This document shows positions 12,972 to 43,644 of a stretch of 64,000 nucleotides of DNA, piece by piece. This stretch comes from Patescibacteria group bacterium UBA3531 (GTDB taxonomy: Bacteria; Patescibacteriota; Minisyncoccia; Phycocordibacterales; UBA3531), in NCBI GenBank assembly GCA_002376885.1, contig DFOW01000001.1, forward strand, positions 143,741 to 207,740, in the 5' to 3' direction. Position 1 is the first letter of the stretch, and each line of letters begins with the position of its first letter. The notes under the pieces are model-generated. The model ran no database searches. It saw only the letters and a list, made by a program, of their open reading frames with translations, and had not been told where the DNA came from. The position numbers and the translations under genes are program-made.

Positions 12972-13013
12972 TAATACCCTTCCTTTTTCCTTCCGGCTCC
13001 CTATAATCAAGGT

Positions 13014-15379: not shown

Positions 15380-15439
15380 GATTACTTATACTAAAGCAAA
15401 TTGATTTGCCGAGCAAATTTGAGTACACTGCTTTGGTAC

Positions 15440-15521: not shown

Positions 15522-15530
15522 CAATTTAAT

Positions 15531-15653: not shown

Positions 15654-15679
15654 CAGCTCATTGACCAAAGGAACTTCTT

Positions 15680-16090
15680 TTGGTTAAATCAGTAATGGGT
15701 GGCAATGGGTGCCACAAAGCTCATGTACCACTTGTCTTTGGGGAGACAAACGTGAAACAAGGAAGGACGTCCTGTGAAGATCCGTTCGTCAACTTCAACG
15801 ATCACCTCTACAAGCGCCGGGGCATCGGCTCGCTCGAAGAGGGGAAGCTCGAACGGACGGAGGATCGACCCGCCTGGGTGCCGGAGGAAGCGACCGTCGC
15901 TGTACGGACGCGGCGCCTCCACGAACGGAGGGTTCTCGAGGTAACCACGTTCCGCCCGAACGGGAGCGGGTTCATCGAACAGAAGAACATCTTGGGAGGC
16001 GGCCGCGGTAGCATGCCGTCCCCCCAGATCGTGGAGATGCTCCTGAAGGAGGAGTACCCCTCGATCGACGTCCACCTCATCCAGGGCTAG
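15680..16090 (+). CDS. G+C-rich ORFan (cassette B); alternative GTG start at 15752
   Basis: Strong G/C bias at third codon positions in this frame; AGGAAGG just before internal GTG; overlapping minus-strand ORF 15689..16075 treated as GC shadow. Confidence 0.4.
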   Translation: MVKSVMGGNGCHKAHVPLVFGETNVKQGRTSCEDPFVNFNDHLYKRRGIGSLEEGKLERTEDRPAWVPEEATVAVRTRRLHERRVLEVTTFRPNGSGFIEQKNILGGGRGSMPSPQIVEMLLKEEYPSIDVHLIQG

Positions 16091-16111
16091 CGCTTCAGGC
16101 GCACAGCCTTC

Positions 16112-16156
16112 GCGGGGCGTGCGGCACGAAAGTGTCCACGCCCCGCCTTCTTTTTT
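16112..16156 (+). terminator. strong intrinsic terminator (10-bp GC stem + T-run) ending at the miaA ATG
   Basis: GCGGGGCGTG...CACGCCCCGC followed by cttctttttt then ATG of miaA at 16157. Confidence 0.6.
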
Positions 16157-17044
16157 ATGAACAAATCAAAGCTAATCATCATCGGGGGGCCAACAGCAAG
16201 TGGCAAAAGCGACTTAGCAGTTAGTGTGGCAAAAAAATATGGTGGAGAAGTTATTTCAGCAGATTCAAGGCAAGTATATAAGGGTCTTGATATTGGAACA
16301 GGAAAAATAACAAAAAAAGAAATGGGGGGCATTCCTCACCATCTTCTTGATGTAGCAAGCCCTAAAGAGCAATTTACTGCCCAGGACTTTCAAACAAAAG
16401 GAGGCCAAGCTATTAAAAAAATTTTTAAAAAAAATAAACTCCCCATTATTTGCGGCGGCACTGGATTTTATATAGATGCTCTCATATATAAAACTCAATT
16501 TCCAAGCATCCCCCCTAATAAAACCTTGCGCACAAAACTTGAAAAAAAGACACCTGAGGAGCTTTTTAAAATACTTAAGAACAAAGATCCCGAAAGAGCC
16601 ATGGTAATTGATCAGCACAATAAACGAAGATTAATCCGAGCCTTAGAGATTGTAGAAACTTTAGGAAAAGTTCCACAATTACACAAAACATTGCCCTATA
16701 AAATTTTATATATAGCGCTTGATCCAGTTGATCTTGATATAAAAATTCATGCGCGCCTAAAAGCAAGAATCAAACAAGGACTTATAAAAGAGGGGGAAAC
16801 ACTCCATAAAAAAGGTCTTTCGTATAAACGGATGAGAGAGCTGGGGCTTGAGTATAAATATTTAGCAGATTTGCTTCAAGAAAAAATCACTAAAGAAGAA
16901 TTTACTGAACAACTTGAAAAAGAGATCAGGCGTTATGCAAAACGGCAAATGACCTGGTTTAAAAAACAAAAAAATGTTCTTTGGTTTAAACCAAATGAAA
17001 CTAAAAAAATCTCCACAAAAGTAGAGAAATTTTTAGCTCTTTAG
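16157..17044 (+). CDS. miaA: tRNA dimethylallyltransferase
   Basis: N-terminal P-loop IIGGPTASGKS, ADSRQVYKGLDIGTGK, MiaA fold. Confidence 0.85.
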   Translation: MNKSKLIIIGGPTASGKSDLAVSVAKKYGGEVISADSRQVYKGLDIGTGKITKKEMGGIPHHLLDVASPKEQFTAQDFQTKGGQAIKKIFKKNKLPIICGGTGFYIDALIYKTQFPSIPPNKTLRTKLEKKTPEELFKILKNKDPERAMVIDQHNKRRLIRALEIVETLGKVPQLHKTLPYKILYIALDPVDLDIKIHARLKARIKQGLIKEGETLHKKGLSYKRMRELGLEYKYLADLLQEKITKEEFTEQLEKEIRRYAKRQMTWFKKQKNVLWFKPNETKKISTKVEKFLAL

Positions 17045-17311: not shown

Positions 17312-17470
17312 TTACTTTTTTATTTCGTTATGCATAGTGTGCTTCCTGCACCATTTACAGTGCTTTTTGAGTTCAATTTTACGCTCAACAAGCTTCCGAT
17401 TCTTTCGGCTCCAGTAATTAGTGCGCTTACAATCTTTGCACGCAAGTTTTATAAGTTGATCTTGTGACAT
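17312..17470 (-). CDS. rpmG: 50S ribosomal protein L33
   Basis: 52-aa ORF below track cutoff: MSQDQLIKLACKDCKRTNYWSRKNRKLVERKIELKKHCKWCRKHTMHNEIKK, with CxxC...CxxC zinc ribbon and HxxE ending typical of L33. Confidence 0.75.
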   Translation of the reverse strand: MSQDQLIKLACKDCKRTNYWSRKNRKLVERKIELKKHCKWCRKHTMHNEIKK

Positions 17471-17532
17471 ATATTCAAAATTTGAGCTTCATAAAGATAC
17501 CCCATAGACCCTGAAAAATCAAGAGAAAAGGC

Positions 17533-17928
17533 TCACCATGCGGCGAGCCTTCCTTCCCCCGTGCCCTCGGGCTTGGGAGGAATGGCGCTTCTCTGCGGCC
17601 TTCGGAAGAACTGAGATTCCCCCATGGCACGCAACATCTTGACGAAGTCGTCCTCGACACAGAAACCGAGCCTCATGATGCACTCGGGACCATCGCAAAG
17701 GACAACGACAGCGTGACTTCCTTGGGCGCCGTCCTTGGGCTGGAAGACCGAGACCCTTCCTTGGAAGCGCCAAGCAACCAAGCAATCGATGAATCCGATC
17801 TTCGTCCCACAACGAGGACAGACGCGCTTGGGGCACCACACCCCAAACCCAGCACCGGCACTGATACTGTCAGCAACCGAAGACCCCCAGGAAGTGACCC
17901 AATAATCTTCGGGAACAATCTGCGTCAC
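17533..17928 (-). CDS. G+C-rich ORFan with 4-Cys zinc-ribbon-like motif (cassette C), GTG start
   Basis: CPKRVCPRCG...CDGPEC; GC3-rich; AAAGGGGGGG upstream of GTG; no family recognised. Confidence 0.4.
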   Translation of the reverse strand: MTQIVPEDYWVTSWGSSVADSISAGAGFGVWCPKRVCPRCGTKIGFIDCLVAWRFQGRVSVFQPKDGAQGSHAVVVLCDGPECIMRLGFCVEDDFVKMLRAMGESQFFRRPQRSAIPPKPEGTGEGRLAAW

Positions 17929-17961
17929 AGCCCCCCCTTTCTGAAAAACACTTTACCTTTT

Positions 17962-17990
17962 TTGACATAAAAAAGAAAGCATAGTATGGT
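17962..17990 (+). promoter_or_regulatory. promoter TTGACAtaaaaaag-17-TATGGT for cassette C plus-strand gene
   Basis: TTGACA 17962-17967, TATGGT 17985-17990. Confidence 0.45.
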
Positions 17991-18303
17991 TTACGTCTGT
18001 TCTTATTGGGGAAGGAGCCCTATAGACATGCACCATGTTGAAGTGCTAGACATCGATGGATTCCAGAACTTCCGCCTACATGAGGGAGACGAGATCATCC
18101 TCCCTGGCGTTCATCTCGAAGCCTCTCCCGCCCCGGGAGACAAGGTGAAGCTCGCCTTCCGTGACGTGGACTGCGTGACGAAGACGAGAGAAGCACTCAT
18201 CACCGGATCCATCGACCCCGGCGAGCCGAGCAACCCGAGGGAGCCCGTGGCTCCCAAGGACATCCGAGTTCGGTGGAACGATCCCATCGTGCGCTGGTCC
18301 TAA
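17986..18303 (+). CDS. G+C-rich ORFan (cassette C), 105 aa (alternative start 18028)
   Basis: GC3-rich frame, followed by strong terminator; no family recognised. Confidence 0.4.
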   Translation: MVYVCSYWGRSPIDMHHVEVLDIDGFQNFRLHEGDEIILPGVHLEASPAPGDKVKLAFRDVDCVTKTREALITGSIDPGEPSNPREPVAPKDIRVRWNDPIVRWS

Positions 18304-18316
18304 CGGACCAGACAAA

Positions 18317-18352
18317 GACCCCCGCGCATGCGCGGGGGTCTCGTCATTTTTA
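18317..18352 (+). terminator. intrinsic terminator GACCCCCGCGCATGCGCGGGGGTC + T-run
   Basis: 12-bp perfect GC stem followed by tcgtcatttttat. Confidence 0.7.
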
Positions 18353-18485
18353 TACAGTGTGCGCCGGGCAGGATTCGGTCACGAGTTACAAATTCGCTTT
18401 GCTCATAAGTACTCTCGACCCCAGCTCAAAAATAATCTCCCAGATTATTTTTTCCGCTCTTCGAATCCTAATTCCAGTCCAGAAA

Positions 18486-18516
18486 TAAAAAACCCGGCAC
18501 AAGGCCGGGATTTTTG
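18486..18516 (-). terminator. intrinsic terminator after tRNA-Tyr (CCCGGC-loop-GCCGGG flanked by A5/T5)
   Basis: aaaaacccggcacaaggccgggattttt; minus-strand RNA has U-run after stem. Confidence 0.6.
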
Positions 18517-18526
18517 ATCTCTGTGT

Positions 18527-18609
18527 GCGCCGGGCAGGATTCGAACCTGCGTAGGTCTAAGACCGGCGGATTTACAGTCCGCTGCAATTGACCACTCTGC
18601 CACCGACGC
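18527..18609 (-). tRNA. tRNA-Tyr (anticodon GTA), long variable arm
   Basis: Acceptor GCGTCGG/CCGGCGC, anticodon stem GCGGA/TCCGC loop CTGTAAA, T-arm GCAGGTTCGAATCCTGC. Confidence 0.85.
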
Positions 18610-18653
18610 AAAAGCACGAGTAAGTATACACAAAAACTCGTGTCTTTTACAAC

Positions 18654-25883: not shown

Positions 25884-26630
25884 ATGCAGTATATAATATT
25901 ATCACCTTGTATGGGTATAAAATATTTAATAGACGAGCAATACTTTGAGAGCTGGTCCCCTGAAATGGCATACATTCTTGGATTTTTATATGCAGACGGA
26001 AGTTTGGAAAACGCTCCTAAACTGCGAGGAAAATATGTCAGAGCAACAAGCACCGATCTTGAAGTAATAAAACATATAAAAAAATCTTTACGTTCTGAAC
26101 ACAGAATAATCATAATACCCTCTTTTAGAAAGAGAAAAGAGAGATACTTGTTCAGAGCTGGAAGCCATGTTCTTTTTGATTCATTGACACAACATGGCCT
26201 TTTTCCAAATAAGTCTTTATCAATGAAGTTCCCCAAAAACATCCCTTCAAACTACCTAAGTCATTTTATAAGGGGATATTTTGATGGTGATGGATGTGTT
26301 CACTTGTCACAGGCCCGCAACCGAGAAGGTGCTCTACTGGTTAAAAGATTGGGCGTTGTCTTTACAAGCGGAAGTGAGTTATTTTTAAAAGAATTAGAAC
26401 GAGAAATCAGAAATGTCTTAAATATCAAAAAAAGAAATATCTATAAGAGTCGTCGTTCATTCCAGTTACGATATAGCACGACTGACAGTATAGAACTATT
26501 TACATTGATATATGCAAATACAAAAAATTTATTTTATTTAGGTAGAAAAAAAGAGATTTTCCTTCGATATTTTAAGTTGCGACCTCAGAGAATTAATACT
26601 AATATTGGTAAAATGTTAAAAAATATGTAA
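25884..26630 (+). CDS. free-standing LAGLIDADG homing endonuclease (two LAGLIDADG motifs)
   Basis: LGFLYADGS and IRGYFDGDGCV motifs about 100 aa apart; basic C-terminus. Confidence 0.75.
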   Translation: MQYIILSPCMGIKYLIDEQYFESWSPEMAYILGFLYADGSLENAPKLRGKYVRATSTDLEVIKHIKKSLRSEHRIIIIPSFRKRKERYLFRAGSHVLFDSLTQHGLFPNKSLSMKFPKNIPSNYLSHFIRGYFDGDGCVHLSQARNREGALLVKRLGVVFTSGSELFLKELEREIRNVLNIKKRNIYKSRRSFQLRYSTTDSIELFTLIYANTKNLFYLGRKKEIFLRYFKLRPQRINTNIGKMLKNM

Positions 26631-26635
26631 CCATG

Positions 26636-26709
26636 GCCCAGTGGCGAAGTTGGTTAACGCGACGGTCTGCAAAACCGTTATGCACCGGTTCGAATCCGGT
26701 CTGGGCCTT
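26636..26709 (+). tRNA. tRNA-Cys (anticodon GCA)
   Basis: Acceptor GGCCCAG/CTGGGCC, anticodon loop CTGCAAA, T-arm ACCGGTTCGAATCCGGT. Confidence 0.8.
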
Positions 26710-26726
26710 ACGCAGCTATAGTCATG

Positions 26727-26808
26727 GGCTAGTGGCGGAACCGGTATACGCGCAACACTTAAAATGTTGTCCCGATTCGGGATGTGGGTTCGAGTCCCAC
26801 CTAGCCCA
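26727..26808 (+). tRNA. tRNA-Leu (anticodon TAA)
   Basis: Acceptor GGGCTAG/CTAGCCC, anticodon stem CAACA/TGTTG loop CTTAAAA, long variable arm, T-arm GTGGGTTCGAGTCCCAC. Confidence 0.85.
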
Positions 26809-26835
26809 CAAGAAGAAATTTCAAATAATATTAAA

Positions 26836-26848
26836 TAACCGCCCATAG
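26836..26848. repeat. 13-bp duplicate of the tRNA-Lys 5' end (taaccgcccatag)
   Basis: Exact copy of 26916-26928, about 80 bp upstream of the tRNA. Confidence 0.6.
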
Positions 26849-26918
26849 TTGATAGAGATTGAAAGCGTGGGACGCTTTAAATGCGATAAACGGTAAGGTA
26901 ATATAGGAAAAAATTTAA

Positions 26919-26991
26919 CCGCCCATAGCTCAGCTGGTAGAGCAGACGGCTCTTAACCGTAAGGTCCTAGGTTCGAATCCTAGTGGGCGGA
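26919..26991 (+). tRNA. tRNA-Lys (anticodon CTT)
   Basis: Acceptor CCGCCCA/TGGGCGG, D-arm GCTCAGCTGGTAGAGC, anticodon loop CTCTTAA, T-arm CTAGGTTCGAATCCTAG. Confidence 0.75.
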
Positions 26992-27010
26992 CAAGCAATA
27001 AAATTGCTTT

Positions 27011-27093
27011 GGGCGAGTGGCGGAATTGGTAGACGCGCTGGTCTTAGGAACCAGTCTGCTTTGCAGGTGGAGGTTCGAGTCCTCTCTCGCCCA
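27011..27093 (+). tRNA. tRNA-Leu (anticodon TAG)
   Basis: Acceptor GGGCGAG/CTCGCCC, anticodon stem CTGGT/ACCAG loop CTTAGGA, long variable arm. Confidence 0.85.
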
Positions 27094-27101
27094 CAAGAAA
27101 A

Positions 27102-28133: not shown

Positions 28134-28163
28134 ATCCCCCTCCCTTGCGCGTCCCATTTTTAT

Positions 28164-28192
28164 ACTTGACAAAAGCACGATTTTATGCTAAT
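28164..28192 (+). promoter_or_regulatory. promoter cTTGACAaaag-17-TAATTT for cassette D
   Basis: TTGACA 28164-28169; AT-rich -10; AAAGAGG RBS before ATG at 28297. Confidence 0.4.
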
Positions 28193-28296
28193 TTTGATGC
28201 AGGTTAGATAGCACCGCGGTGGTGCACCAGACTGTACGTCGCAGTGCGACAGTTCATCGTCAACTCACTTTCTAGCGAAGAAAAGAGGTAATATTC

Positions 28297-29475
28297 ATGT
28301 CAATCATAACCCTGACGTTGATCGTCTTCGTCACGCTCCTTGTTCTGAGTGTGCCGTTGTTCGTCCTCGTTGCGTGGCTCCTGGCCTACCTGGATATCTT
28401 TTTTGGATTCCTCCAGGAGAATACGGGCTTCGCCAAGATCGTTGGAGACAACCAACTTCAAAGCATGCAAATCGCTTCGAAGAGTCAGCACCTCAAAAGG
28501 AAGGTGGTCCAACACCCTGAGGCGGGCGCAATCGAGACGTGGGTTCTGGAACAAGGAGCAGATCCCAACCCTGCCTTCGGCCTTATTGGTTGGATGGAGC
28601 GCAAGCTTGGTGTCTACTGGATTGGTGTTTGGCCGTTCCAAAGGCGCTACCGGTACGAGATGTTCCGAACCGTCTTCGATCGGAGTGCTGACGCAGACGA
28701 GAACACGATCCTCCGGAAGAATGACCAGAGCAAGTTCTTCTACGTTCAGCCGGTGGAGTACGCCTTCTCTCTCCTCGGAGCAGAGACAGGCAGTGCCTTC
28801 GCTGGCGACACAGAAGATACGGACACTTCGTCTCGGGGTGGCAACATCCCGGTGAACGTGAAGTTCTCCGTGTTCCTCTTGATCACAAGACCCGAGATTG
28901 CCCTCTTCAAGAACCCTGTATGGTTCGAGCGAGCAAGCTCGATCCTTCTGTCCGCAGCGAAGAACTACGTCGGCACTCGTGCGTATGAGGCGCTCCGTGG
29001 CGAAAGCCGATCGGACACCGCAGACGTCGAGACCGATGATGCCTTCGCGGGCTACATGCGGGATCTGAACGAAGCGATTCCGGGAACCGGTCACGGCTTC
29101 GAATCCGAGATCGGTGCCAAGATCGTCGGAGCGGCCATCAGAGCCGTCGACATCACGGCGGAGGGCGAAGAGGCCCGAAGCGCAACGCTGCTCCTCTACG
29201 GAGAAGAGCAGCGCGCCAAGGGAATCCGAGCCGTCGCTGATGCGCGTCGCTACGAGCTCGAACAGGAGCTCGATGCAGTCGATGGATCCCCCAACGGGGG
29301 GCACGTCCGTCGGATGCGCGCGATCGAGCGTGCAGGTGAGCGTGGTAACACAATCATCTTCACGAGCGGCGGCGACGAAAAGGAGGATCGTGTCGCAGCG
29401 AACCTTCTGGCTGGCCGCAAGGGTGAAGACCCCTCAAGCGAAGGCACCGATGACTCCACCGAGAAGGAGGAGTAG
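28297..29475 (+). CDS. G+C-rich SPFH/band-7-like membrane protein (cassette D)
   Basis: N-terminal TM, beta-rich core with ...ASSILLSAAKNYVGTRAYEAL..., EIGAKIVGAAIRAVDI, then A/E/R-rich coiled-coil AEGEEARSA...RAKGIRAVADARRYE as in HflK/C-flotillin. Confidence 0.5.
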   Translation: MSIITLTLIVFVTLLVLSVPLFVLVAWLLAYLDIFFGFLQENTGFAKIVGDNQLQSMQIASKSQHLKRKVVQHPEAGAIETWVLEQGADPNPAFGLIGWMERKLGVYWIGVWPFQRRYRYEMFRTVFDRSADADENTILRKNDQSKFFYVQPVEYAFSLLGAETGSAFAGDTEDTDTSSRGGNIPVNVKFSVFLLITRPEIALFKNPVWFERASSILLSAAKNYVGTRAYEALRGESRSDTADVETDDAFAGYMRDLNEAIPGTGHGFESEIGAKIVGAAIRAVDITAEGEEARSATLLLYGEEQRAKGIRAVADARRYELEQELDAVDGSPNGGHVRRMRAIERAGERGNTIIFTSGGDEKEDRVAANLLAGRKGEDPSSEGTDDSTEKEE

Positions 29476-30252
29476 ATGAAGATGCCTGACTCGATAAGGG
29501 GGCTTGGGTGGAAGCGGTTCTCCGCAACTGCCCTTACCTCGTTCATCCTCGTCATTGTCTCGTTCATGATCGTGAACGCAGGCGAGGGCGAGGCAGAGAA
29601 GGTCTTCAAGACTCTCTCTGTGATTGCGACCGGGATTGGAGCACTCCTCGTTCTCCTGCTTCTTCTCGTGATCGTGTCGTCTCTTGCTCGTAGGCGTCGG
29701 TCTCTCAAAAAAGAGACTCCCGTCGTCGACAAGCCGACCAAACCAGGAAGATGGCAGAAGTTCAGGGCCACTCCCTTCTTCTGGACACTCTTCAAGGTCT
29801 CCGCCTTCGTAGTGGCAGTAGTCATTGCAATAAGCGGATTCCCTCTGTTGCGTGACGCCATGAACATCCCCGACGTGGGGCCCAGGAATGGAGATCTCAA
29901 GTTCTCCAAGTGGACGCTCTCCAGTACACCACTGTCGTACAACCTGAATCGAACGACACGTGGTACGGTCAAGATCTGGAAGAAAGAGCGTCGCTTTGAG
30001 CTTCCGTTCTTCTTGAACATGAAGCTCATGGGCGAGGATGGAGTTCTCGTGGGGCAAATCACCTCGAGTGACTTTGCCATGGGCGAGACCTTCCCCGTCA
30101 CCTGGGAGATGACCTGGCGAGACCATATGACCGGAGACGGAGCCCTCGAGTGTCACTACAACAAACACCACAGCGTGATTGCTTGTAACGGCACCATCTG
30201 CGGCGAAGATTCCGAAGGTCGGAGGTGTCGTCGAGTGAACTTTAGCGGCTAG
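29476..30252 (+). CDS. G+C-rich membrane protein (3 TM + Cys-containing soluble C-domain), start abuts upstream stop; possible NfeD-like partner
   Basis: TAG-ATG junction at 29473-29478; three hydrophobic helices; no family recognised. Confidence 0.4.
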   Translation: MKMPDSIRGLGWKRFSATALTSFILVIVSFMIVNAGEGEAEKVFKTLSVIATGIGALLVLLLLLVIVSSLARRRRSLKKETPVVDKPTKPGRWQKFRATPFFWTLFKVSAFVVAVVIAISGFPLLRDAMNIPDVGPRNGDLKFSKWTLSSTPLSYNLNRTTRGTVKIWKKERRFELPFFLNMKLMGEDGVLVGQITSSDFAMGETFPVTWEMTWRDHMTGDGALECHYNKHHSVIACNGTICGEDSEGRRCRRVNFSG

Positions 30253-30267
30253 AAAGGAGAAGACATC

Positions 30268-30339
30268 CTCACATCTAAATATATAGATGTGAGAAAATGG
30301 GCCCTGTCCGCCATATGCGGATAGGGCCTGTTTCTTTGT
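30268..30339. terminator. tandem hairpins between convergent cassette D and pilin array
   Basis: CTCACATCTA-aatatat-AGATGTGAG and GGGCCCTGTCCGC-cata-TGCGGATAGGGCC + tgtttcttt. Confidence 0.55.
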
Positions 30340-30360
30340 CTGCCACCTTCGTAAAATTCT

Positions 30361-30825
30361 CTATGGCAATATATTACAAAAAGGAGAATCTGCTGGAATA
30401 CAAAGTTCACGACCCTGATTACCAGAATTTCCTGTTGGCTGATTTGGAACCAAATTTCCAGGGTCGCTAATAGGTTGTGGTGGCTCGGTAAAAAATGGGC
30501 TTTCTCCCGGAACACCACCAAAAAAGATTGTTAAAATAATGGTCACAATCCCCCACAACGAAACAAGAACAAAAATTCCTACAACACCAATCACCAAAAT
30601 CCTTCGGGCTCCTTCTTTTTTTGTTGGGTCCTCACTCGAAGACAAATATTTAATAACACCCCAAATAAATACAACTACTGCCACCCCAACCAAAAGTGGA
30701 ACAACGTCACGAAGTGGAATAATTAAATTGTATACATAGACATCAAACGAGGTTTGCGCCGAGACAATAAATGGCACAAACAATAAAGAAAGGGTTGTAC
30801 TGATTCCAAAAAATTTCTTTAACAT
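30361..30825 (-). CDS. pilin-like paralog P1 (Sec signal + 2 TM, VirB2/TrbC-like T4SS-pilin architecture) with Pro-rich C-tail
   Basis: MLKKFFGISTTLSLLFVPFIVSAQ signal; LVGVAVVVFIWGVIKYLSSSEDPTKK...ILVIGVVGIFVLVSLWGI; start at internal ATG. Confidence 0.5.
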   Translation of the reverse strand: MLKKFFGISTTLSLLFVPFIVSAQTSFDVYVYNLIIPLRDVVPLLVGVAVVVFIWGVIKYLSSSEDPTKKEGARRILVIGVVGIFVLVSLWGIVTIILTIFFGGVPGESPFFTEPPQPISDPGNLVPNQPTGNSGNQGRELCIPADSPFCNILP

Positions 30826-31139
30826 GCTCCTATAAATACACAAAGTGTGTTTAATATTGCCCACACCCCTGCCATAATTACAAATCCAATAATCCCATAA
30901 ATTGCATTACGTTTTCCTCTCGCTACCTTGTCTTCGCTGTCTGCTCCGTAAATCCATTCAATAACTCCCCACGCAAATACAATCATGGCAACAACAAACA
31001 TAAGGCCAATCAAAGGACGCAAAATAAACAGTTGGATATTAAAAAGAATTTCTTCAAGTCTGCTTGTTTGGGCAAGCGCCACAAGTGGAATAAATAAAAA
31101 AGAAGTGACAATACCCAAAGCCTGTATGTGTCGTTTCAT
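30819..31139 (-). CDS. pilin-like paralog P2
   Basis: MKRHIQALGIVTSFLFIPLVALAQ signal; MFVVAMIVFAWGVIEWIYGADSEDK...IYGIIGFVIMAGVWAIL; start at internal ATG 31139. Confidence 0.5.
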   Translation of the reverse strand: MKRHIQALGIVTSFLFIPLVALAQTSRLEEILFNIQLFILRPLIGLMFVVAMIVFAWGVIEWIYGADSEDKVARGKRNAIYGIIGFVIMAGVWAILNTLCVFIGAC

Positions 31140-31219
31140 AATTACAGTATACCCACAAAACCTAAAAGGAGCACCATAGGTGCTCCTTTTAGTGTATATA
31201 AGTTTACCGAAGTAATTTC

Positions 31220-31582
31220 TTACGGAATTGGTGGAGTTTGTGCTGATCCTGTTCCTGCTCCAGTCAAGTTTTGCAAGATCGCAACAAGTCCCCAGATAGA
31301 CACGATTACAAAGATCGCAATAATGCCGTAAATCATAAGGTTTCGTCCTGCTGCTCGTTTTTCTTCGCTTTCTCCGGCAGTAACGTATCGGATAACTCCC
31401 CAAATGAATACCACAACAGCAACCGCTACAAGAAATGGAATCAAGTTTCCAATAATTCCTCGAGCTTGAGACAAAAGACTGCTGATGTATCCTGTGTTAG
31501 GAGATTGAGCAAGCGCCATCAAAGGAAGGAGTACTGCACTCGCTCCTGTTGCTGCACCTGCTAATTTTGCCGTATATTTCAT
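31220..31582 (-). CDS. pilin-like paralog P3
   Basis: Signal ...LLPLMALAQ; LVAVAVVVFIWGVIRYVTAGESEEK...IYGIIAIFVIVSIWGLV. Confidence 0.5.
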   Translation of the reverse strand: MKYTAKLAGAATGASAVLLPLMALAQSPNTGYISSLLSQARGIIGNLIPFLVAVAVVVFIWGVIRYVTAGESEEKRAAGRNLMIYGIIAIFVIVSIWGLVAILQNLTGAGTGSAQTPPIP

Positions 31583-31647
31583 ACTAGTATGATAAATCGT
31601 ACTTATAATTTTACTAATCGACCTTTGTTAAATGCTTAACAACTATT

Positions 31648-31935
31648 TTATAACGTCTCAATCGTCTCAGCAATAACGGTCACTATCACCCACGCTCCAA
31701 GCAAGACCGATGCACCGATAATGGTGTATAGAAACGTTTTTTTGGCACTTTTAATCTTGTCTTCACTCCCTCGTGCTGTTACAAATAAAAATCCAGAGTA
31801 AATGATAAAAAAAACTGCAATCACTACTCCGTACTGAATTAAAACATCCACCAGACGCTGCAACAGTCCTAAAAGATTGTCTGCAGCTATTGGATTTTGT
31901 AGCTGTGCGTGAGCTGTTTTTACAAGCTTAATCAT
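31648..31935 (-). CDS. pilin-like paralog P4, apparently lacking a signal peptide (possibly decaying copy)
   Basis: IAVFFIIYSGFLFVTARGSEDK...LYTIIGASVLLGAWVIV; in-frame TAA 4 codons upstream of ATG prevents N-extension. Confidence 0.4.
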   Translation of the reverse strand: MIKLVKTAHAQLQNPIAADNLLGLLQRLVDVLIQYGVVIAVFFIIYSGFLFVTARGSEDKIKSAKKTFLYTIIGASVLLGAWVIVTVIAETIETL

Positions 31936-32010
31936 AGTGCCTCTTGTTTAGTATAACGAATACGTTTACTTATGGTCTCCTCTTGAATAATTCTTGTGGA
32001 AATCCATTAT

Positions 32011-32415
32011 TTATACTCCCGGACAATTAGGAAATTGGTTCCAGTTCGTAAACGAACCATTCGCAAGCACTGAAATAATGGTATTGATAATAAGCCAAGC
32101 AGCAAAGGCAATAATAATACCGTACACACCATTTTTAATAGTACTTTGCGCTTTTCCGGTACTCCCCACATTCCCTGCAGCAAGCATGTATTGAATCCCA
32201 CCCCAGGCAATAACAAGTGCCGCAACCGGAATAATGATAATCAAAAGAAAATCAATAATAGTATCAGCAAGAATATATAAATGACACACGCGACAAGGTT
32301 CAAGATCACCTTGCCCACACACAATCAGACTCGGGAGTTGTGCATTAGCAACAAGCGGAAGCGCCGCGATCACAACAAGAAATAAGAATGATGAAATGTG
32401 TGCAATTTTTTTCAT
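32011..32415 (-). CDS. pilin-like paralog P5 (Cys-containing N- and C-extensions)
   Basis: Signal MKKIAHISSFLFLVVIAALPLVANAQ; VAALVIAWGGIQYMLAAGN...VYGIIIAFAAWLII. Confidence 0.5.
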   Translation of the reverse strand: MKKIAHISSFLFLVVIAALPLVANAQLPSLIVCGQGDLEPCRVCHLYILADTIIDFLLIIIIPVAALVIAWGGIQYMLAAGNVGSTGKAQSTIKNGVYGIIIAFAAWLIINTIISVLANGSFTNWNQFPNCPGV

Positions 32416-32416
32416 A

Positions 32417-33736
32417 CTATTGAGCTTGGTTTACAAGAGAACGAAGGGCATTTTTTGCAGTCACAATTGCTTGTCCCGCGTCAGTTACATTAATAGAAAC
32501 ATCTCGGACCATTTTTCTAAACACGTTTTCTGTGGCACCAGGATTAGGGTCAAGCCACGTGCGCGTTATGATCGCCCCATCGTAAAATACCGACATAACC
32601 GGATCTGTTGAACCACCCGACAAAAGATCTCTTCGCGCGCTTGGCAAAAAGAAGATATCTTCTAAAAGTCTTTGGTTTTCTTGTGAGGCAAATGAAAGGA
32701 AGAAAGCTGCAGGGAACGCCTGGTTAAAGTTTGGAGAGTTCTTAACAATTCCAACGGCATAAATAGTTCCATAGTTTGCGTCGGTTCCAACTTCCAATTG
32801 TGGTACTGGTGCAACGTCATAATTTAAAAGAGGATTCCTTGATTTTATATTTTCGTATTCACTTGCAGGTGCCAAATAAAGAGCCAAATCACCAAGAGAA
32901 AATGCATTAGCAGATGGTTGAAGCGAAGTGTTCCACGAGTAATGCCTTTTTACTGGGTCAGAAAACCCAGAGTAAAACGAGAGTGCAGACTCTGCAGGTG
33001 GTTGCCCACTTGCTTGCCCAGGAATATTGTTACCCAAAACCACTTGTGGTGTTCCATTTGCATCACGCGCTACTACATCATCCCCTGCTTGAAGTAATAA
33101 AAGAGAGAGGATATTTTTAAAATAATTTATGTTGTCTGCCTCACCAAGAGCAATAGCACTTTCAAGAATCTTTCCTCGAGAATCTCGCTTGGTAACTTGA
33201 TTAGAAAAATCAATAACGTTTGTCCATGTATCAGGGACTTGTGTGATTCGTTCATTGTTAAAGGTATCACGGTTCCAATACATAACCATCGGATCAACAA
33301 GGAGCGGGAGTGCAGAAATCGCTGTCCCTTCAACAAAAATCTCTGCGCCTTCTATATAGGTGTTTCTAAAGTCTCGGGTATCAAACCCTTCGCTTTCTTC
33401 TATGGGAAAAAGGCTGTCTTTAAGCGTTACTAGTTGTTCGTGTGGGAAAATAACAAGATCGGGCTGACTGTTGCTTGCAATTGCGCGGAGCAAATCAATT
33501 TCCAAATCACTTTCTTGTTTTTGTGTGTACCTGAGCGTTACCTTGTCTCCTACTTCAAATGCATCTAACTGAGAAGTAATTTTATTTGATGGAAGCGTAC
33601 CCCACACTTGAAGCGTTACCGGATTTGCTCGAGAACTCCCACCACCAGGAGAGGGAATATACCCCGCAAACATAAGCGTTCCAATAACGCCCAGCGCGAT
33701 AAAAATTCCGATAAGTGTGATTTGAAACGCTTTCAT
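32417..33736 (-). CDS. secreted extracellular solute-binding-protein-like (ABC SBP family 1-like) protein, no permease genes nearby
   Basis: Signal/TM then VTLQVWGTLP..., PDLVIFPHEQLV, LPLLVDPMVMYWNRDTF, PDTWTNVIDF motifs reminiscent of MalE-type SBPs. Confidence 0.45.
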   Translation of the reverse strand: MKAFQITLIGIFIALGVIGTLMFAGYIPSPGGGSSRANPVTLQVWGTLPSNKITSQLDAFEVGDKVTLRYTQKQESDLEIDLLRAIASNSQPDLVIFPHEQLVTLKDSLFPIEESEGFDTRDFRNTYIEGAEIFVEGTAISALPLLVDPMVMYWNRDTFNNERITQVPDTWTNVIDFSNQVTKRDSRGKILESAIALGEADNINYFKNILSLLLLQAGDDVVARDANGTPQVVLGNNIPGQASGQPPAESALSFYSGFSDPVKRHYSWNTSLQPSANAFSLGDLALYLAPASEYENIKSRNPLLNYDVAPVPQLEVGTDANYGTIYAVGIVKNSPNFNQAFPAAFFLSFASQENQRLLEDIFFLPSARRDLLSGGSTDPVMSVFYDGAIITRTWLDPNPGATENVFRKMVRDVSINVTDAGQAIVTAKNALRSLVNQAQ

Positions 33737-37682: not shown

Positions 37683-37801
37683 TTCGCGTCTTTATTAACC
37701 CTTCTGAACCCCCCTAGTATAGCAGAAATCCGCCTAAAAACAAAGCTTTTTCTGGTTTTTAGCCTAAAAATAATTTCAAGCTATTGAATCATTAAACGTA
37801 C

Positions 37802-37830
37802 TTGACAAATATATATAAATATGATATTAT
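37802..37830 (+). promoter_or_regulatory. promoter cTTGACAaat-17-TATTAT for cassette E
   Basis: TTGACA 37802-37807, TATTAT 37825-37830. Confidence 0.5.
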
Positions 37831-37889
37831 AAGAATAGAAACATAGGGAAAGGCATTGTGCCCCTACTGCTCACCACAAGGAGAATACC

Positions 37890-38249
37890 GTGTATACCGC
37901 AGCATCTCTTTTTCTGATCATCTTCTGCGTGGCATGCTCCCCTGTGGAGGAGGCAAGCCCCAGAGAGAAAGTGAATGAAATCCGGCAGGGTTTCGTGAAT
38001 GACATCGGAGATGAGGGCCTAGAGAAGGCTCTTGAGAACCTCTCGCAGGAATGCGAGAAGCTCGAAGGCTACGGCTTCAGTGTCAAGACCCTCAACAGGA
38101 CTCGAGGCGTCTACAAGATCAAGATCACTGGGCCCAACGTGGCAACCCAGGTGATCTTTCAGACCTCTGAGTCAGTCGACGAGCAATCCTCTGCAGAGCG
38201 CCTGGACGCTCCTACACTCAAGGGGTTTGAGGCTCCCATTCTCCAGTAG
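37890..38249 (+). CDS. G+C-rich putative lipoprotein ORFan (cassette E)
   Basis: Signal LFLIIFCVACSP with lipobox-like Cys; GC3-rich; GAGAATACC-GTG/ATG context; terminator follows. Confidence 0.4.
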   Translation: MYTAASLFLIIFCVACSPVEEASPREKVNEIRQGFVNDIGDEGLEKALENLSQECEKLEGYGFSVKTLNRTRGVYKIKITGPNVATQVIFQTSESVDEQSSAERLDAPTLKGFEAPILQ

Positions 38250-38288
38250 TACCAAGGCTTCGCCTGACAGCCTAAAAGGACTCGGGCA

Positions 38289-38322
38289 ACACACCATCTT
38301 GGAAGCAAGGTGGTGTTTTTGT
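38289..38322 (+). terminator. intrinsic terminator ACACCATCTTGG-aagc-AAGGTGGTGT + TTTTTG
   Basis: 11-bp stem (1 mismatch) plus T-run. Confidence 0.6.
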
Positions 38323-38505
38323 ATTTGTACAATTAATTGTACAAATAATTCTGTATTGTTACGCAGCATGTTACGTAACACCTTACGTAAATAAAAACTT
38401 CCCAAGAAACCACATTTGGAAATGGTACCCTCCTGTCGGGCACGTTTGGAACTTTGGATTGGAGTAGAATAAGGTGAGATTTGATGGAGTTCGGATTTGT
38501 ATAGC

Positions 38506-38778
38506 CTAGAGTGTATTAAAAAGATATACGATTATAGCAAAGCCAACCACAACGATTAGGGCGTAAAATGATTTTTTATTTAAGAACGTGTCGCCATCAT
38601 CTATAAATTTGCCGACAAAGTAAAAGAGGAGAAGGGTTATTATAGGGAAAATTTGTTGTTCAGCTTGTAGAATAAAAATATTATCTGTTGGTGGATAATC
38701 AGTAAGGATGCGTGTGTACAGCAAATAAAGCACATACAGAATTCCCCAAATAATTATTCCTAGATATTGCTTTTTCAT
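38506..38778 (-). CDS. small hypothetical membrane protein (2-3 TM)
   Basis: 90 aa, hydrophobic; no family recognised. Confidence 0.35.
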   Translation of the reverse strand: MKKQYLGIIIWGILYVLYLLYTRILTDYPPTDNIFILQAEQQIFPIITLLLFYFVGKFIDDGDTFLNKKSFYALIVVVGFAIIVYLFNTL

Positions 38779-38849
38779 AATAAAAGTATATCAAAAGTTC
38801 TATATCCTTTTGTTGGGATATCGAAATTTAATGTGAATAAATAAGGCTC

Positions 38850-39075
38850 AAAAATTTGCCCCCAGAAACACGGTTTGAAATTCTACCATGGGAATATTTC
38901 TTATCCTAGCACGACTTTTGAAAGGACTCTCGGAAATAAAGTTCCCCAGGGAAGTATGTTTGAGAGCGTCCGCAGGCGATACTGCTTGGTTTTGCCGTAG
39001 GCAAAAGTATCGCCGAGGATAGAGCGAGTCTCCGCTGGAGAGACGAGCGTCTGCCCAAATGTGGTTTCTTAAAGC
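38850..39075. ncRNA. candidate structured RNA upstream of rpsA promoter (identity and strand unresolved)
   Basis: Moderate-GC segment with nested long-range pairings (GGGAATATTTC/GAAATAAAGTTCCC; GGCGATACT/AGTATCGCC with inner TTTTGCC-GTAG-GGCAAAA); RNase P and tmRNA motifs not found. Confidence 0.2.
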
Positions 39076-39080
39076 TCCAC

Positions 39081-39109
39081 TTGCCAAAAAACGAGTTAAA
39101 CACTATACT
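39081..39109 (+). promoter_or_regulatory. promoter TTGCCA-17-TATACT for rpsA (about 125-nt leader with perfect 10-bp hairpin ACACAAGAAC/GTTCTTGTGT)
   Basis: TTGCCA 39081-39086, TATACT 39104-39109. Confidence 0.55.
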
Positions 39110-39234
39110 ACACCAGTCCCGTTTTTTCATTTCTAAGCGATGAAAGAACGTCTTTTTTTATTAGCGACGTAGTGTGAGAGACACAAGAACAAGTTCTTGT
39201 GTACGAACCGAGGAGCTAATATACCAAAACGTAT

Positions 39235-42315: not shown

Positions 42316-43644
42316 ATGCCAGCAAAAAAACCAGACAATAGTATAAAGACACCAAAAGGAATGCGAGACTTGCTAGGAGAAGAATATTTTACCTATCAAG
42401 GATTTTTTGAAAAAGCAGCAGAGATTGCTCTTTATTACGGATTCAAACCAATTGAGACTCCTATTATGGAGCGCGAAGAACTGTTCCACAGTGTTGGCGA
42501 GCACACAGACGTGGTTACCAAAGAAATGTATGCACTCAAAGCAAAAGGTTCAAACAAGTTTGCTTTGCGTCCAGAAGGAACCGCCCCTGTAATGCGTGCC
42601 TATATAGAACACGGCATGCAAACCTGGCCACAACCAGTCATGCTGTATTACGGTGGACGATTTTTCCGTCACGACAATCCTCAACGAGGACGCTTTAGAG
42701 AATTCCGACAATTTGGACTCGAAGTTATTGGTACCGACAAAAGCATTGCCGATGCCATGACCATTAAAGTAATGGCAACAGTACTAGAAGAAGTCGGGAT
42801 TGAAAACATTGTAGTAGACATTAACAGCTTAGGAGACAAAGAATGTCGAACCGCCTACAAGCGAGCCCTTGTTAATTACTTTAAAAAGCACTCTGGCAAA
42901 TTAAATGCACACGAAAAAGATTTACTAAAGAACAATCCACTTCGTCTTTTGGATTCAAAAAATCCAGAACTTGAGAAACTTAAGGAAGACGCACCAACAT
43001 CAATGGAATTTTTGACAGGTGAATCTAAAAAGCACTTTAAAGAAGTCCTTGAATATTTGGATGCACTCGATATTACGTATCAAATTAACAATACCTTGGT
43101 ACGAGGTCTTGATTATTACTCTCGAACCGTCTTTGAATTTATTGAACAACCAAAAGAGGCTCCAGAAGGAGAAGGTGGCGATAAAAAAGAAGAAGCAAGC
43201 GCTCCCCTCTCTCTCGGAGGCGGTGGACGATACAATTACCTTGGTAAGGCACTCGGAGCAAAACAAGATGTTCCGGGAGTGGGTGCCGCACTTGGCGTTG
43301 ATAGAATCCTTATGGATGAAAGCGTTAAAAACCTTACCCCACGAATTGTTAAAAAACCAAAAGTATACTTTATTCAACTTGGTTTTGAAGCAAAGCTAAA
43401 AAGCTTGGGTGTTATTGAGATCTTGCGTAAAGCACGACTCCCTATACGGCAATCGCTTTCAAAAGACGGACTCTCTGCACAGCTAGGCACCGCAGAGAAG
43501 TTGAGGATCCCATGGGTGGTGATCATGGGCCAAAAAGAGGTGCTTGAGAACTGCGTTATTGTACGCAACATGGAGGACCGATCTCAAACCAATGTCCCTA
43601 TTGAAGAACTCGCTGACTATATTAAAAAAGTCATTGCCAAATAA
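42316..43644 (+). CDS. hisS: histidyl-tRNA synthetase
   Basis: Class II motifs (FRHDNPQRGRFREF.Q, GGGRY), anticodon-binding C-domain. Confidence 0.9.
   Translation: MPAKKPDNSIKTPKGMRDLLGEEYFTYQGFFEKAAEIALYYGFKPIETPIMEREELFHSVGEHTDVVTKEMYALKAKGSNKFALRPEGTAPVMRAYIEHGMQTWPQPVMLYYGGRFFRHDNPQRGRFREFRQFGLEVIGTDKSIADAMTIKVMATVLEEVGIENIVVDINSLGDKECRTAYKRALVNYFKKHSGKLNAHEKDLLKNNPLRLLDSKNPELEKLKEDAPTSMEFLTGESKKHFKEVLEYLDALDITYQINNTLVRGLDYYSRTVFEFIEQPKEAPEGEGGDKKEEASAPLSLGGGGRYNYLGKALGAKQDVPGVGAALGVDRILMDESVKNLTPRIVKKPKVYFIQLGFEAKLKSLGVIEILRKARLPIRQSLSKDGLSAQLGTAEKLRIPWVVIMGQKEVLENCVIVRNMEDRSQTNVPIEELADYIKKVIAK

Follow-up and report, generated by a model that had tools for sequence, protein, structure and literature searches.

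Introduction

In Pyrococcus horikoshii, the stomatin PH1511 has an NfeD-type protease, PH1510, as its partner. PH1511 (PDB 3bk6, 8gn9) and eukaryotic stomatin are close systems to the two-gene operon described here, which lies in a 64,000-nt stretch of Patescibacteria DNA (the window), and the Escherichia coli SPFH–NfeD pair QmcA–YbbJ (PDB 8z5g) is among the closest known. Unlike PH1511, the first product of the operon (gene A) is encoded beside neither a protease nor an NfeD partner and has no Pfam Band_7 match at E ≤ 1. The HflK/C–FtsH and prohibitin cages are hetero-oligomers of two SPFH paralogues around an AAA protease; the operon, by contrast, carries a single predicted SPFH gene, a non-enzymatic-looking partner (gene B) and no linked FtsH.

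The operon converges on a cluster of VirB2-like pilin genes. In Patescibacteria, 441 such arrays of 2–11 genes have been described, mostly in Microgenomatia and Saccharimonadia (PMC12102498), and the window's approximately five variable T4SS_pilin genes are of the same type. Pilins are essential in Southlakia epibionticum (PMC10633639). Term searches of PMC12102498 and PMC10633639 found no mention of an SPFH pair beside pilin arrays, and the annotation table of S. epibionticum lists a single SPFH protein, the canonical slipin SEML1_0609, which is encoded elsewhere in the genome. Our literature searches returned no account, in CPR, of an SPFH–pilin linkage or of the compositional behavior reported below.

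Results

Layout and composition of the operon

Two abutting forward-strand ORFs, genes A and B, make up the operon (Table 1). The TAG–ATG junction described in the original prediction is present at 29473–29478 and, with the AAGGAGG motif that precedes it, suggests translational coupling of the two genes. At orthologous loci (labeled L001 and so on, with W denoting the pair in the window), A and B overlap by 4–26 nt (L001, L007, L015, L017, L018, and L020) or are separated by 3–35 nt (L008, L019, and L022); in L012 and L016 a terminator lies between them, together with a second promoter of the type seen ahead of gene A.

Table 1. Features of the operon and its right flank in the window
Feature	Coordinates	Strand	Details	Basis
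Putative promoter, extended −10 type	28166..28194	+	−35 TTGACA 28166–28171; 17-nt spacer; TGC and −10 TAATTT 28189–28194	read from sequence
5′ leader	28195..28296	+	hairpin GCACC 28211–28215 / GGTGC 28221–28225; Shine–Dalgarno AGAGG 28284–28288	
Gene A, predicted divergent SPFH (stomatin/prohibitin/flotillin/HflK-C) protein	28297..29475	+	392 aa	
A–B junction	29464..29478	+	AAGGAGG 29464–29470; stop TAG 29473–29475; start ATG 29476; no spacer	read from sequence
Gene B, hypervariable membrane protein	29476..30252	+	258 aa	hydropathy, charge counts, AF2
Double-hairpin terminator	30266..30343	+	AT-rich stem 30266–30295; G+C-rich 15–17-bp stem 30297–30333; T-rich tail	
Array of about five VirB2/TrbC-like T4SS_pilin genes	30361..32415	−	convergent with the pair	Pfam PF18895
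SBP_bac_8-like protein	32417..33736	−	closes the conserved block; followed by methyltransferase and GyrA	

The operon was predicted to have its own promoter and a double-hairpin terminator, and both are borne out, the former as a candidate. The putative promoter TTGACA-N17-TAATTT is kept in L001/L002, and of the 12 orthologous loci, 11 have a TTGAC[AT]...TGCTATAAT-type site 60–175 nt 5′ of the SPFH gene; a strict sigma-70 scan returned no promoter upstream of the pair. Between the window and L001/L002 the leader hairpin has an identical stem and a different loop, and the leader overall folds no better than shuffles (z −0.4). The terminator, with its two adjacent stems and T-rich tail, has a folding energy of −51.5 kcal/mol (z = −8.7 versus shuffles) and is common to the operon and the convergent pilin array; its G+C-rich hairpin and the sequence TGTTT are kept in L001. 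Rfam 15 gave no gathering-score matches in the region, and the sole match at E ≤ 1 was a sub-threshold PyrR-site on the terminator (27 bits versus 54).

The pair had been singled out as the largest compositional island of the window, at about 2.1 kb, and the segment 28201–30400 is indeed the longest with GC ≥ 0.48, reaching 0.52–0.64 against approximately 0.40 in the flanks (400-nt windows). GC3 is 0.70 in gene A and 0.69 in gene B, compared with 0.27–0.45 in all other long window ORFs (small G+C-rich islets excluded). Synonymous codon usage is host-atypical, with preferences inverted relative to the other genes: TTC 0.87 versus 0.13, AAG 0.81 versus 0.21, and GAG 0.72 versus 0.30. The promoter is AT-rich (GC 0.28), and the G+C excess is thus limited to the transcribed part. 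Amino acid content was rejected as the source of the excess because GC1 and GC2 are raised to a modest degree, in contrast to a doubled GC3 and reversed synonymous preferences. Other small G+C-rich islets occur in the same genome, and comparison with L001 and L007 shows at least one of them (37.7–39.2 kb) to be an insertion.

Gene A and the SPFH superfamily

The predicted product of gene A opens with an N-terminal transmembrane (TM) helix, followed by an SPFH region that is enlarged and rich in beta structure, a coiled-coil helix, a GNTIIFTS segment, and an acidic tail. In a confident structure model, helices span residues 2–31, 288–330 (the long coiled-coil), and 334–348, with GNTIIFTS after the last, and hydropathy places a hydrophobic segment inside residues 1–41. 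This is the layout of SPFH proteins—N-terminal anchor, SPFH domain, coiled-coil helices, and short C-terminal segment—and the modeled domain has the SPFH alpha/beta fold.

Homology was assessed with profiles built from the four closest sequences (A1), the 24 nearest (A6), and 115 sequences (A3). Profile A3 matches the P. horikoshii stomatin at 1.2e-14, as well as human stomatin, HflC, HflK, QmcA, and prohibitins in the PDB, and A6 matches solved SPFH proteins at 2.3e-07. Against the PDB, A1 and a phmmer search with gene A itself returned only noise; since A1 falls short of the solved SPFH proteins, the link to them is transitive. Gene A alone matches no Pfam family at E ≤ 1, Band_7 (PF01145) included, but 52 of the 115 family members sampled match Band_7 at E ≤ 0.01 (best 1.3e-12), the remaining 63 being missed. 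The SPFH/band-7-like assignment of the original prediction, upheld by the profiles and the structure model and not by a Band_7 match of gene A itself, is right in substance: gene A belongs to a highly divergent SPFH subfamily that the Pfam model misses.

An exhaustive HMM search recovered 753 clusters of the gene A family, compared with only four to five by word-indexed homologue search, profiles included; profile A1 found one, zero, and two loci in genome, viral, and metagenome collections, respectively. The two named family members in the results are both annotated as "hypothetical protein". Neither gene had a meaningful match in Pfam, NCBIfam, PHROGs, or PADLOC, gene B giving only weak TM-type noise, and neither protein matched the defense models of PADLOC-DB 2.0 at E ≤ 1.

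Gene B, a variable membrane partner

The three-TM membrane partner originally described is supported by hydrophobic segments at residues 14–38, 42–74, and 98–129 of gene B, modeled as three long helices. A strongly basic loop at residues 71–98, with 11 K/R, is predicted to be cytoplasmic, and a C-terminal all-beta domain (approximately residues 160–257) with four Cys is predicted to face outward; the AF2 model, from a two-sequence alignment (pLDDT 52, pTM 0.27), places seven strands in residues 160–257. Positional orthologues are 11–24% identical to gene B in alignment, and a profile search found only two clusters.

The suggestion that the partner might be NfeD-like found no support. Gene B does not match NfeD (PF01957) at E ≤ 1, NfeD is absent among the best 25 of 73 families for gene B together with six positional orthologues, and a profile of these seven sequences retrieved no NfeD chain from the PDB. 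What is left is a loosely NfeD-like architecture, in which a multi-TM N-terminal part and a C-terminal beta domain are encoded beside an SPFH gene.

A conserved neighborhood

The pair lies, as first described, between a Ca/Na antiporter and a convergent pilin array: the protein upstream matches Na_Ca_ex (E 7.5e-61), and four PF18895 matches lie downstream (30361–30864, 31220–31582, 31648–31935, and 32011–32415). A fifth likely pilin is encoded by an ORF ending at 30819, with a pilin-like signal peptide and TM pattern. A tRNA cluster is located about 1 kb upstream of the pair, the nearest tRNA lying behind a gene of native composition.

The pair is present in all the relatives found, and A and B are adjacent in all 12 orthologous loci besides the window. 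Its placement, facing a VirB2-like pilin array in convergent orientation, is the same in at least six divergent CPR lineages. The locus position is shared by L001/L003, L007, and L020/L021, and the right flank by L002, L004, L005, L006, L012, and L017; adjacency of pair and array was recorded in L001–L006, L007, L012, L017, and L020/L021. The SBP_bac_8-like gene also follows the array in L001, L007, and L012, and L020 encodes a 433-aa SBP homologue that has no Pfam match on record and is 31–39% identical to the others. In L008 and L015, which are of the Saccharibacteria type, an M16 peptidase gene stands downstream in place of the pilins. The left boundary is a rearrangement point, with an rve transposase abutting the promoter in L002/L004/L006 and identity to L001 beginning at L001 position 9881, just 5′ of the promoter.

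Vertical descent and host-independent composition

A foreign cassette, the reading implied by the original prediction, is not supported by these relatives: the pair sits at the same locus, has a phylogeny congruent with that of its flanks, and bears no signatures of mobility. Among the five taxa compared, a coarse sample, pairwise identities of the SPFH protein rank as those of SBP, MTase, and GyrA do. Between W and L001, where IF2 and GyrA are 72–82% identical, four-fold sites are near saturation and GC3 is still high in both. This near-saturation led us to reject an ancient transfer that has stayed unameliorated. We conclude that the operon is vertically inherited, specific to CPR/Patescibacteria, and not a recent import.

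Most of the relatives share a non-native composition of the pair. Across host genomes of 36–64% GC, the pair has about 43–62% GC and a GC3 of 0.4–0.75; it is GC-richer than its flanks in all seven AT-rich contexts but has less GC than they do in the only sampled genome of 64% GC (L020 = L021, one lineage). In L023 (P0035), on a short contig without flanking protein genes, the pair is again GC-rich and the region upstream of it AT-rich.

An excess of predicted mRNA folding

Secondary structure extending over a whole ORF can influence how efficiently an mRNA is translated or how long it lasts. Minimum-free-energy predictions for the pair were compared with synonymous-codon shuffles that preserve codon usage exactly, and both ORFs are more stable than their shuffles, with z from −3 to −8 against about −0.5 for controls (p = 4e-6). 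The shuffles, despite identical codon usage, are 10–14% less stable than the native ORFs, so that codon order matters beyond codon choice. The folding excess is greater on the sense strand and scales with compositional deviation. One window control (z −3.4) and two flank controls (−2.4 and −3.0) are outliers, and no excess was found for L017 or for the SPFH gene of L008. In L020 the pair is less stable in absolute terms than its neighbors and shows an excess relative to its own shuffles only. The close relatives are too alike for covariation analysis: L001–L006 and L010 are at least 99.8% identical, and L012/L013/L014 and L020/L021 are identical.

As in the general concept of ORF-wide mRNA structure, the signal is spread over entire ORFs and affects both ORFs of the operon; it differs in being tied to a large, phylogenetically persistent departure from genomic base composition, which can go either way. 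The reading that fits these predictions best is that the atypical composition probably results from gene-specific selection for mRNA structure across the ORFs. We also considered GC-biased gene conversion at a recombination hot spot and rejected it, since it would explain neither the GC-poor deviation in L020 nor a folding signal that depends on codon order and favors the sense strand.

Discussion

Alternative explanations

One alternative, which we hold to be unlikely, is that a hypervariable, exchangeable surface-related cassette has been replaced in situ, repeatedly, by homologous recombination among CPR lineages of differing G+C content, as at O-antigen or pilin loci, so that it never matches its current host. 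Such exchange would accord with a composition that deviates both ways, with the extreme variability of the partner next to the conservation of IF2 and GyrA between W and L001, with the rearrangement point at the left boundary, and with the natural competence of Saccharibacteria (PMC10633639). It sits poorly with SPFH identities that rank like species markers at the resolution available, and no closer donor lineage is known. Exchange alone would also leave unexplained both the dependence of the sense-biased folding excess on codon arrangement and its correlation with compositional deviation, and the sign of that deviation is not random, being positive in every AT-rich context.

Selection for host-rare codons per se, which would slow elongation for co-translational insertion or assembly and produce RNA structure as a by-product, is a less probable account still. 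The pair does use G/C-ending codons in AT-rich genomes and more A/T-ending codons in the 64%-GC genome, and both products are membrane proteins for which assembly at fixed stoichiometry is expected. Against this, shuffles that keep codon usage still lose stability, and the folding signal is biased toward the sense strand.

Recent arrival of a horizontal cassette from a G+C-rich donor, still unameliorated, is what strongly atypical GC, inverted codon usage, a self-contained unit with its own promoter and terminator, the other G+C-rich islets, and a nearby tRNA cluster would ordinarily suggest, but this explanation is largely refuted and we give it very little credence. The pair recurs at the same position in each of the related lineages recovered, with SPFH identities that follow species markers, the turnover of synonymous sites since W and L001 diverged has left GC3 high on both sides, and the deviation is opposite in the GC-rich genome. 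At the window locus we found no flanking direct repeats of note, no integrase, and no insertion in a tRNA gene, the nearest being 1 kb off; among 5.8e9 and 1.8e9 proteins, no donor-like relative is closer than the syntenic orthologues.

An artefact of assembly or binning (a chimeric contig), or non-coding DNA with spurious ORFs, has a negligible probability. G+C-rich DNA does yield long spurious ORFs, and two long ORFs (334 and 283 aa) do lie antisense to the pair. However, proteins identical to those of the pair were recovered from four independent contigs, which reach 245 kb, and relatives show the same junctions with native flanks. The sense ORFs are further backed by homologous proteins and a confidently modeled fold, and the antisense frames are closed in relatives, for which reason overlapping antisense genes were also rejected.

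A proposed envelope operon shaped by mRNA folding

The explanation we favor, and consider on balance probable as a whole, is a vertically inherited SPFH operon with a partner gene, a role in the cell envelope, and a composition set by selection on mRNA folding. Transcription would start at the operon's own extended −10 promoter and stop at the double hairpin. By analogy with solved SPFH assemblies, the N-terminal helix of gene A may anchor the protein in the membrane, and oligomerization through the coiled-coil and C-terminal segment may form a ring or dome around a membrane patch, with gene B as a co-translated client or partner that would interact with gene A. The pair is locked beside the pilin array in most lineages, and so its most likely role, judged from this conserved neighborhood, is to organize or quality-control an envelope microdomain tied to pilin or cell-surface biology. 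The conserved gene order may also simply reflect how little reduced genomes rearrange.

Because the composition is host-independent, synonymous sites have turned over, and the folding excess is sense-biased, we propose that selection for ORF-wide mRNA folding acts on the pair. An ongoing gene-specific force of this kind could hold the composition despite synonymous turnover, and the folding would set the lifetime and/or the translation rate of the mRNA for a stoichiometric, co-assembling membrane complex. Such selection would pull the composition off the genomic mutational equilibrium and so mimic a horizontally acquired island. More tentatively, the operon could be a "pseudo-island", keeping a composition of its own across hosts of 36–64% GC because selection on mRNA structure overrides mutational pressure. 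A more extreme and more speculative version would make the heavily folded transcript itself a cargo that is functional or long-lived, perhaps kept in dispersal-stage cells or handled by the adjacent pilus/T4SS-like apparatus.

Implications

The operon is a counter-example to the equation of atypical GC and codon usage with horizontal transfer, as the island is ancestral and deviates both ways. If the "pseudo-island" interpretation is true, standard compositional detectors of horizontal transfer would misclassify such vertically inherited loci; if the explanation by mRNA structure is true, gene-specific selection on RNA folding can shift GC3 by 0.2–0.4. For the gene A family, of about 750 clusters, the analysis assigns a predicted fold and a probable mode of action as an SPFH membrane cage, and it reveals a deeply conserved adjacency between the SPFH pair and VirB2-like pilin arrays in CPR. 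Since pilin arrays are essential in the one genetically tractable Saccharibacterium, the pair is a concrete candidate for an envelope- or pilin-associated scaffold in CPR bacteria, whose host-attachment biology is largely unexplored.

Operon architecture and neighbours

The longest G+C-rich segment of the window (28201-30400; GC 0.52-0.64 in 400-nt windows, window GC ~42%), originally predicted as its largest compositional island, carries gene A, an SPFH gene, and gene B, encoding a partner with three hydrophobic segments. The TAG stop of gene A abuts the ATG of gene B without a spacer, and AAGGAGG lies just 5' of this junction. The terminator comprises two adjoining hairpins. A strict sigma-70 scan detected no promoter for the SPFH unit, though the site read from the sequence recurs in the nearest relatives, and 11 of 12 orthologous loci have a TTGAC[AT]...TGCTATAAT-type site 5' of SPFH. 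Because the promoter is AT-rich, only the transcribed part shows the G+C excess. The strength of the promoter and of the Shine-Dalgarno sites points to substantial expression. Between the window and the relatives L001/L002 (52% protein identity), a leader hairpin, GCACC-N5-GGTGC (28211-28225), differs in its loop but keeps an identical stem and may be a cis-regulatory element; over its full length, the 5' leader shows no unusual stability. Upstream lies a Na/Ca exchanger gene; on the other side, about five VirB2/TrbC-like T4SS_pilin genes form a convergent array downstream, followed by genes for an SBP_bac_8-like protein (SBP), a methyltransferase and GyrA. The junction, promoter, terminator, three-segment membrane protein and neighbours of the original prediction were thus borne out, and a search for flanking direct repeats around the pair found none.

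Features of the window
Feature	Position	Strand	Remarks
G+C-rich islet	12401-13050		peak GC of the five islets 0.55-0.67
G+C-rich islet	15351-16350		adjoins tRNA-Leu 15440
G+C-rich islet	17401-18650		adjoins tRNA-Tyr 18525
Free-standing LAGLIDADG homing-endonuclease ORF	25884-26630		PF14528, E 5.8e-12; 33% GC
Promoter TTGACA-N17-(TGC)TAATTT	28166-28194	+	read from sequence; kept in nearest relatives
Gene A	28297-29475	+	392-aa ORF
Gene B	29476-30252	+	258-aa ORF
Double-hairpin terminator	30266-30295, 30297-30333	+	T-rich tail; z = -8.7 against shuffles
G+C-rich islet	37851-38350		
G+C-rich islet	57151-57900		
Bacterial RNase P RNA class A	59713-60045	-	122 bits

Protein families of the pair

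Gene A (MAZ40813.1, labelled 'hypothetical protein' at NCBI) alone had no match in NCBIfam, PADLOC or Pfam (Band_7 was missing even at E <= 1); its PHROGs matches were insignificant, and those among PDB sequences were noise. A word-indexed search of 5.8e9 proteins returned only four clusters; an exhaustive HMM search from these reached 753 clusters at E <= 1e-3, of which 344 passed E <= 1e-10; most were 350-430 aa in length. Band_7 matched 52 of 115 aligned members (best 1.3e-12), and the 115-sequence profile had P. horikoshii stomatin as its top PDB match (1.2e-14), with human stomatin, HflC, HflK, QmcA and prohibitins next. Stomatin was also reached by a profile of the 24 nearest members (2.3e-07), but not by that of the four closest sequences alone. 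A confident AlphaFold2 model from the 115-sequence alignment (pLDDT 89, pTM 0.78) comprises a transmembrane helix (2-31), a beta-rich region (36-196), a helical/strand SPFH core, helices of 43 residues (288-330) and at 334-348, and a low-confidence acidic tail, with ~130 additional residues N-terminal to the canonical core. By these profile matches and this model, gene A is a divergent SPFH protein; the SPFH call of the original prediction is upheld by deeper profiles and fold, whereas the Pfam model misses gene A itself.

In gene B the N-terminus is positive and the first loop acidic, while the second loop is very basic (11 K/R in 28 residues); a C-terminal part of ~135 residues with four Cys is predicted to be all-beta and, by the positive-inside rule, probably outward-facing. 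Positional orthologues share this plan at 11-24% identity in alignment. The suggestion that the partner could be NfeD-like was not supported: neither gene B nor, among the best 25 of 73 matches, its six positional orthologues matched NfeD, and no NfeD chain in the PDB was recovered for the group, so the resemblance is at most an architectural analogy. The structure model (pLDDT 52) is too poor for judging an OB fold. The nearest known systems are SPFH-NfeD pairs (E. coli QmcA-YbbJ; P. horikoshii PH1511, paired with the NfeD-type PH1510) and the HflK/C and prohibitin cages; membership of gene B in the NfeD family is not supported.

Distribution and descent

Orthologous pairs were found at loci L001-L009, L012, L015, L017 and L020/L021 and on several short contigs; the window itself comes from a Tara Oceans mesopelagic MAG. 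The order exchanger, SPFH, partner, convergent pilins, SBP, methyltransferase, GyrA is common to the window, L001/L003 and L007. L020 keeps the whole block from SPFH to GyrA despite an SPFH identity of ~25%, and L012 and L017 retain SPFH, partner and pilins; only in the Saccharibacteria-type L008 and L015 does an M16 peptidase replace the pilins 3' of the pair. Across the five taxa compared, the ranking by species markers is exactly that by SPFH identity. No viral relatives were recovered, and no mobility genes occur at the window locus. We conclude that the pair was present ancestrally and has been passed down vertically in this part of the Patescibacteria (CPR). It evolves faster than its neighbours: between the window and L001, identity is 52% for SPFH and ~25% for the partner, against 72% for IF2, 68% for SBP, 75% for the methyltransferase and 82% for GyrA.

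Some strains of the L001 species carry one or two rve-family transposase genes in place of the exchanger, abutting the SPFH promoter (L002 8800-9747, L004 66-1013, L006 42-1700). Together with the start of nucleotide identity at L001 position 9881, just 5' of the -35 box, this marks the left boundary as a rearrangement point; the pilin-side link, unlike this boundary, is constant. In L012 (1504-1677) and L016 (1344-1489), an AT-rich spacer parts SPFH from partner; it contains a hairpin resembling an intrinsic terminator and another TTGAC..TG.TATAAT promoter, so the operon is split into two transcription units, with adjacency and odd composition preserved.

Orthologous pairs: SPFH identity to gene A, third-position G+C (GC3) and block-shuffle z (SPFH/partner); where several loci are listed, GC3 and z are those of the first
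Locus	Identity	GC3	Flank GC3	z
L001-L006	52%	0.54/0.55	0.25-0.35	-4.2/-2.8
L007	47%	0.46/0.42	0.27-0.29	-2.9/-1.6
L015	~30%	0.47/0.55	0.33-0.38	-2.1/-1.5
L008/L009 (Ca. Saccharibacteria MAG)	29%	0.49/0.49	0.40-0.51 (M16 peptidase 0.40)	+1.0/-7.9
L020/L021 (Ca. Paceibacterota)	26%	0.68/0.76	see text	-4.3/-7.6
L012	23%	0.55/0.57	0.32-0.44	-3.2/-4.5
L017	pair present	0.40/0.40	0.34-0.36	-0.7/-0.5

Composition and predicted RNA folding

GC3 is 0.70 in gene A and 0.69 in gene B, against 0.27-0.45 in the other long ORFs of the window, except a few in small G+C-rich islets. The pair also reverses the synonymous preferences of its neighbours (TTC 0.87 vs 0.13, AAG 0.81 vs 0.21, GAG 0.72 vs 0.30, CTC 0.48 vs 0.13), so amino-acid content does not account for the shift. 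In most relatives, too, the pair departs from its flanks in composition (table above). In L012, the AT-rich spacer (0.32) between two G+C-rich ORFs ties the property to the ORFs, not to a contiguous block. In one GC-rich lineage (L020/L021), the only one recovered when a second was sought, the sign is reversed: around the L020 pair, in a 64%-GC genome, GC3 is 0.86-0.93 for pilins, SBP-like gene and methyltransferase, 0.73 and 0.84 for two small ORFs, and 0.62 for a GyrA fragment that is probably read out of frame. At conserved residues, SPFH four-fold degenerate sites of the window and L001 are close to saturation (0.32 identical, 0.26 expected from composition), and the flanks are alike (excess +0.07 to +0.15). 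This turnover rules out an unameliorated ancient transfer; something therefore maintains the pair's composition.

Folding energies were compared with those of shuffled sequences (negative z, more stable) and are thermodynamic predictions only. With dinucleotide shuffles in 150-nt windows, mean z was -1.87 for both genes and -0.11 to +0.23 for IF2, exchanger, SBP and GyrA. Gene-wide synonymous shuffles, preserving protein and codon counts, gave (gene A/B) -5.4/-4.2 in the window, -6.7/-5.0 in L001 and -4.2/-4.0 in L020, with four controls near 0 and IF2 at -2.1. When local composition was preserved as well, by shuffling within 150-nt blocks, gene A stood at -3.70 and gene B at -4.67 (10.7% and 13.8% more stable than shuffles), and 23 window controls averaged -0.59 (sd 1.13, minimum -3.43). 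The null distribution has a tail, since one control of ordinary composition (42316-43644) reached -3.4, close to the SPFH operon; a few controls reach about -3. Four single SPFH genes gave -1.3 to -2.7 and 16 flank controls averaged -0.43; the excess is absent in L017 and in the L008 SPFH gene. Pair genes (n = 20) differed from controls (n = 39; Mann-Whitney p = 4e-6), and absolute GC3 deviation tracked the excess (Spearman rho -0.78, p = 0.02, n = 8). The sense strand exceeded its reverse complement in 10 of 10 tests, as expected under selection on the transcript, in which G-U pairs contribute, but not for hairpins in DNA. Together, the pair carries predicted excess RNA structure that is sense-biased, dependent on codon order and scaling with compositional deviation. 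No Rfam family matched within the pair region, and relatives show no conservation of the window's long antisense ORFs.

Other features of the window

The islet ORFs (84-136 aa, GC3 0.60-0.75) had no significant Pfam match (one weak bPH_11 match, E 0.057). Segments at 12550-12800 (+; z down to -7.5), near 18200-18500 (-; -5.3) and at 57150-57900 (-; -4 to -5) fold far more stably than their shuffles; even a relaxed threshold gave no Rfam family in the islets, which may be unannotated structured RNAs or genes with the same property as the operon. The Lactamase_B_3 to S1 gap (37683-39234) spans ~1.55 kb, against 120-160 bp in L001 and L007, so its G+C-rich lipoprotein-like ORF (37890-38249) and two small ORFs are a lineage-specific insertion, whereas the SPFH operon is ancestral. 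The LAGLIDADG ORF, between rbfA and a four-tRNA cluster (26635-27094), is missing at the corresponding place in L001, where other small ORFs lie. Searches for RNA genes gave thirteen tRNA genes dispersed across the window and no rRNA, tmRNA or SRP RNA.

Interpretation

We propose that selection on ORF-wide mRNA folding shapes the pair's composition: G:C pairs would be favoured where the genome is AT-rich, and a more balanced alphabet where it is extremely G+C-rich. The folding might either lengthen mRNA lifetime or throttle translation. The main competing account is that CPR lineages have repeatedly replaced, in situ, a hypervariable surface-related locus. This would explain the two-way compositional deviation and the partner's extreme variability, but leaves the folding signal and the congruent identities unexplained; we consider it unlikely. 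Less likely again, set beside the dependence on codon order, is selection for rare codons without structure, and recent horizontal transfer of the pair, set beside its vertical descent, is very improbable. An artefact is scarcely credible.

The SPFH protein may form a ring or dome around a membrane patch containing the partner, and the complex may serve envelope or pilin-related biology. Patescibacteria have been described as carrying such pilin arrays (PMC12102498), which are essential in Southlakia epibionticum (PMC10633639); term searches of the two papers gave no reference to an adjoining SPFH pair. The operon represents a divergent SPFH subfamily with a non-NfeD partner in a conserved pilin-array context, whose compositional autonomy is unusual and apparently RNA-driven.
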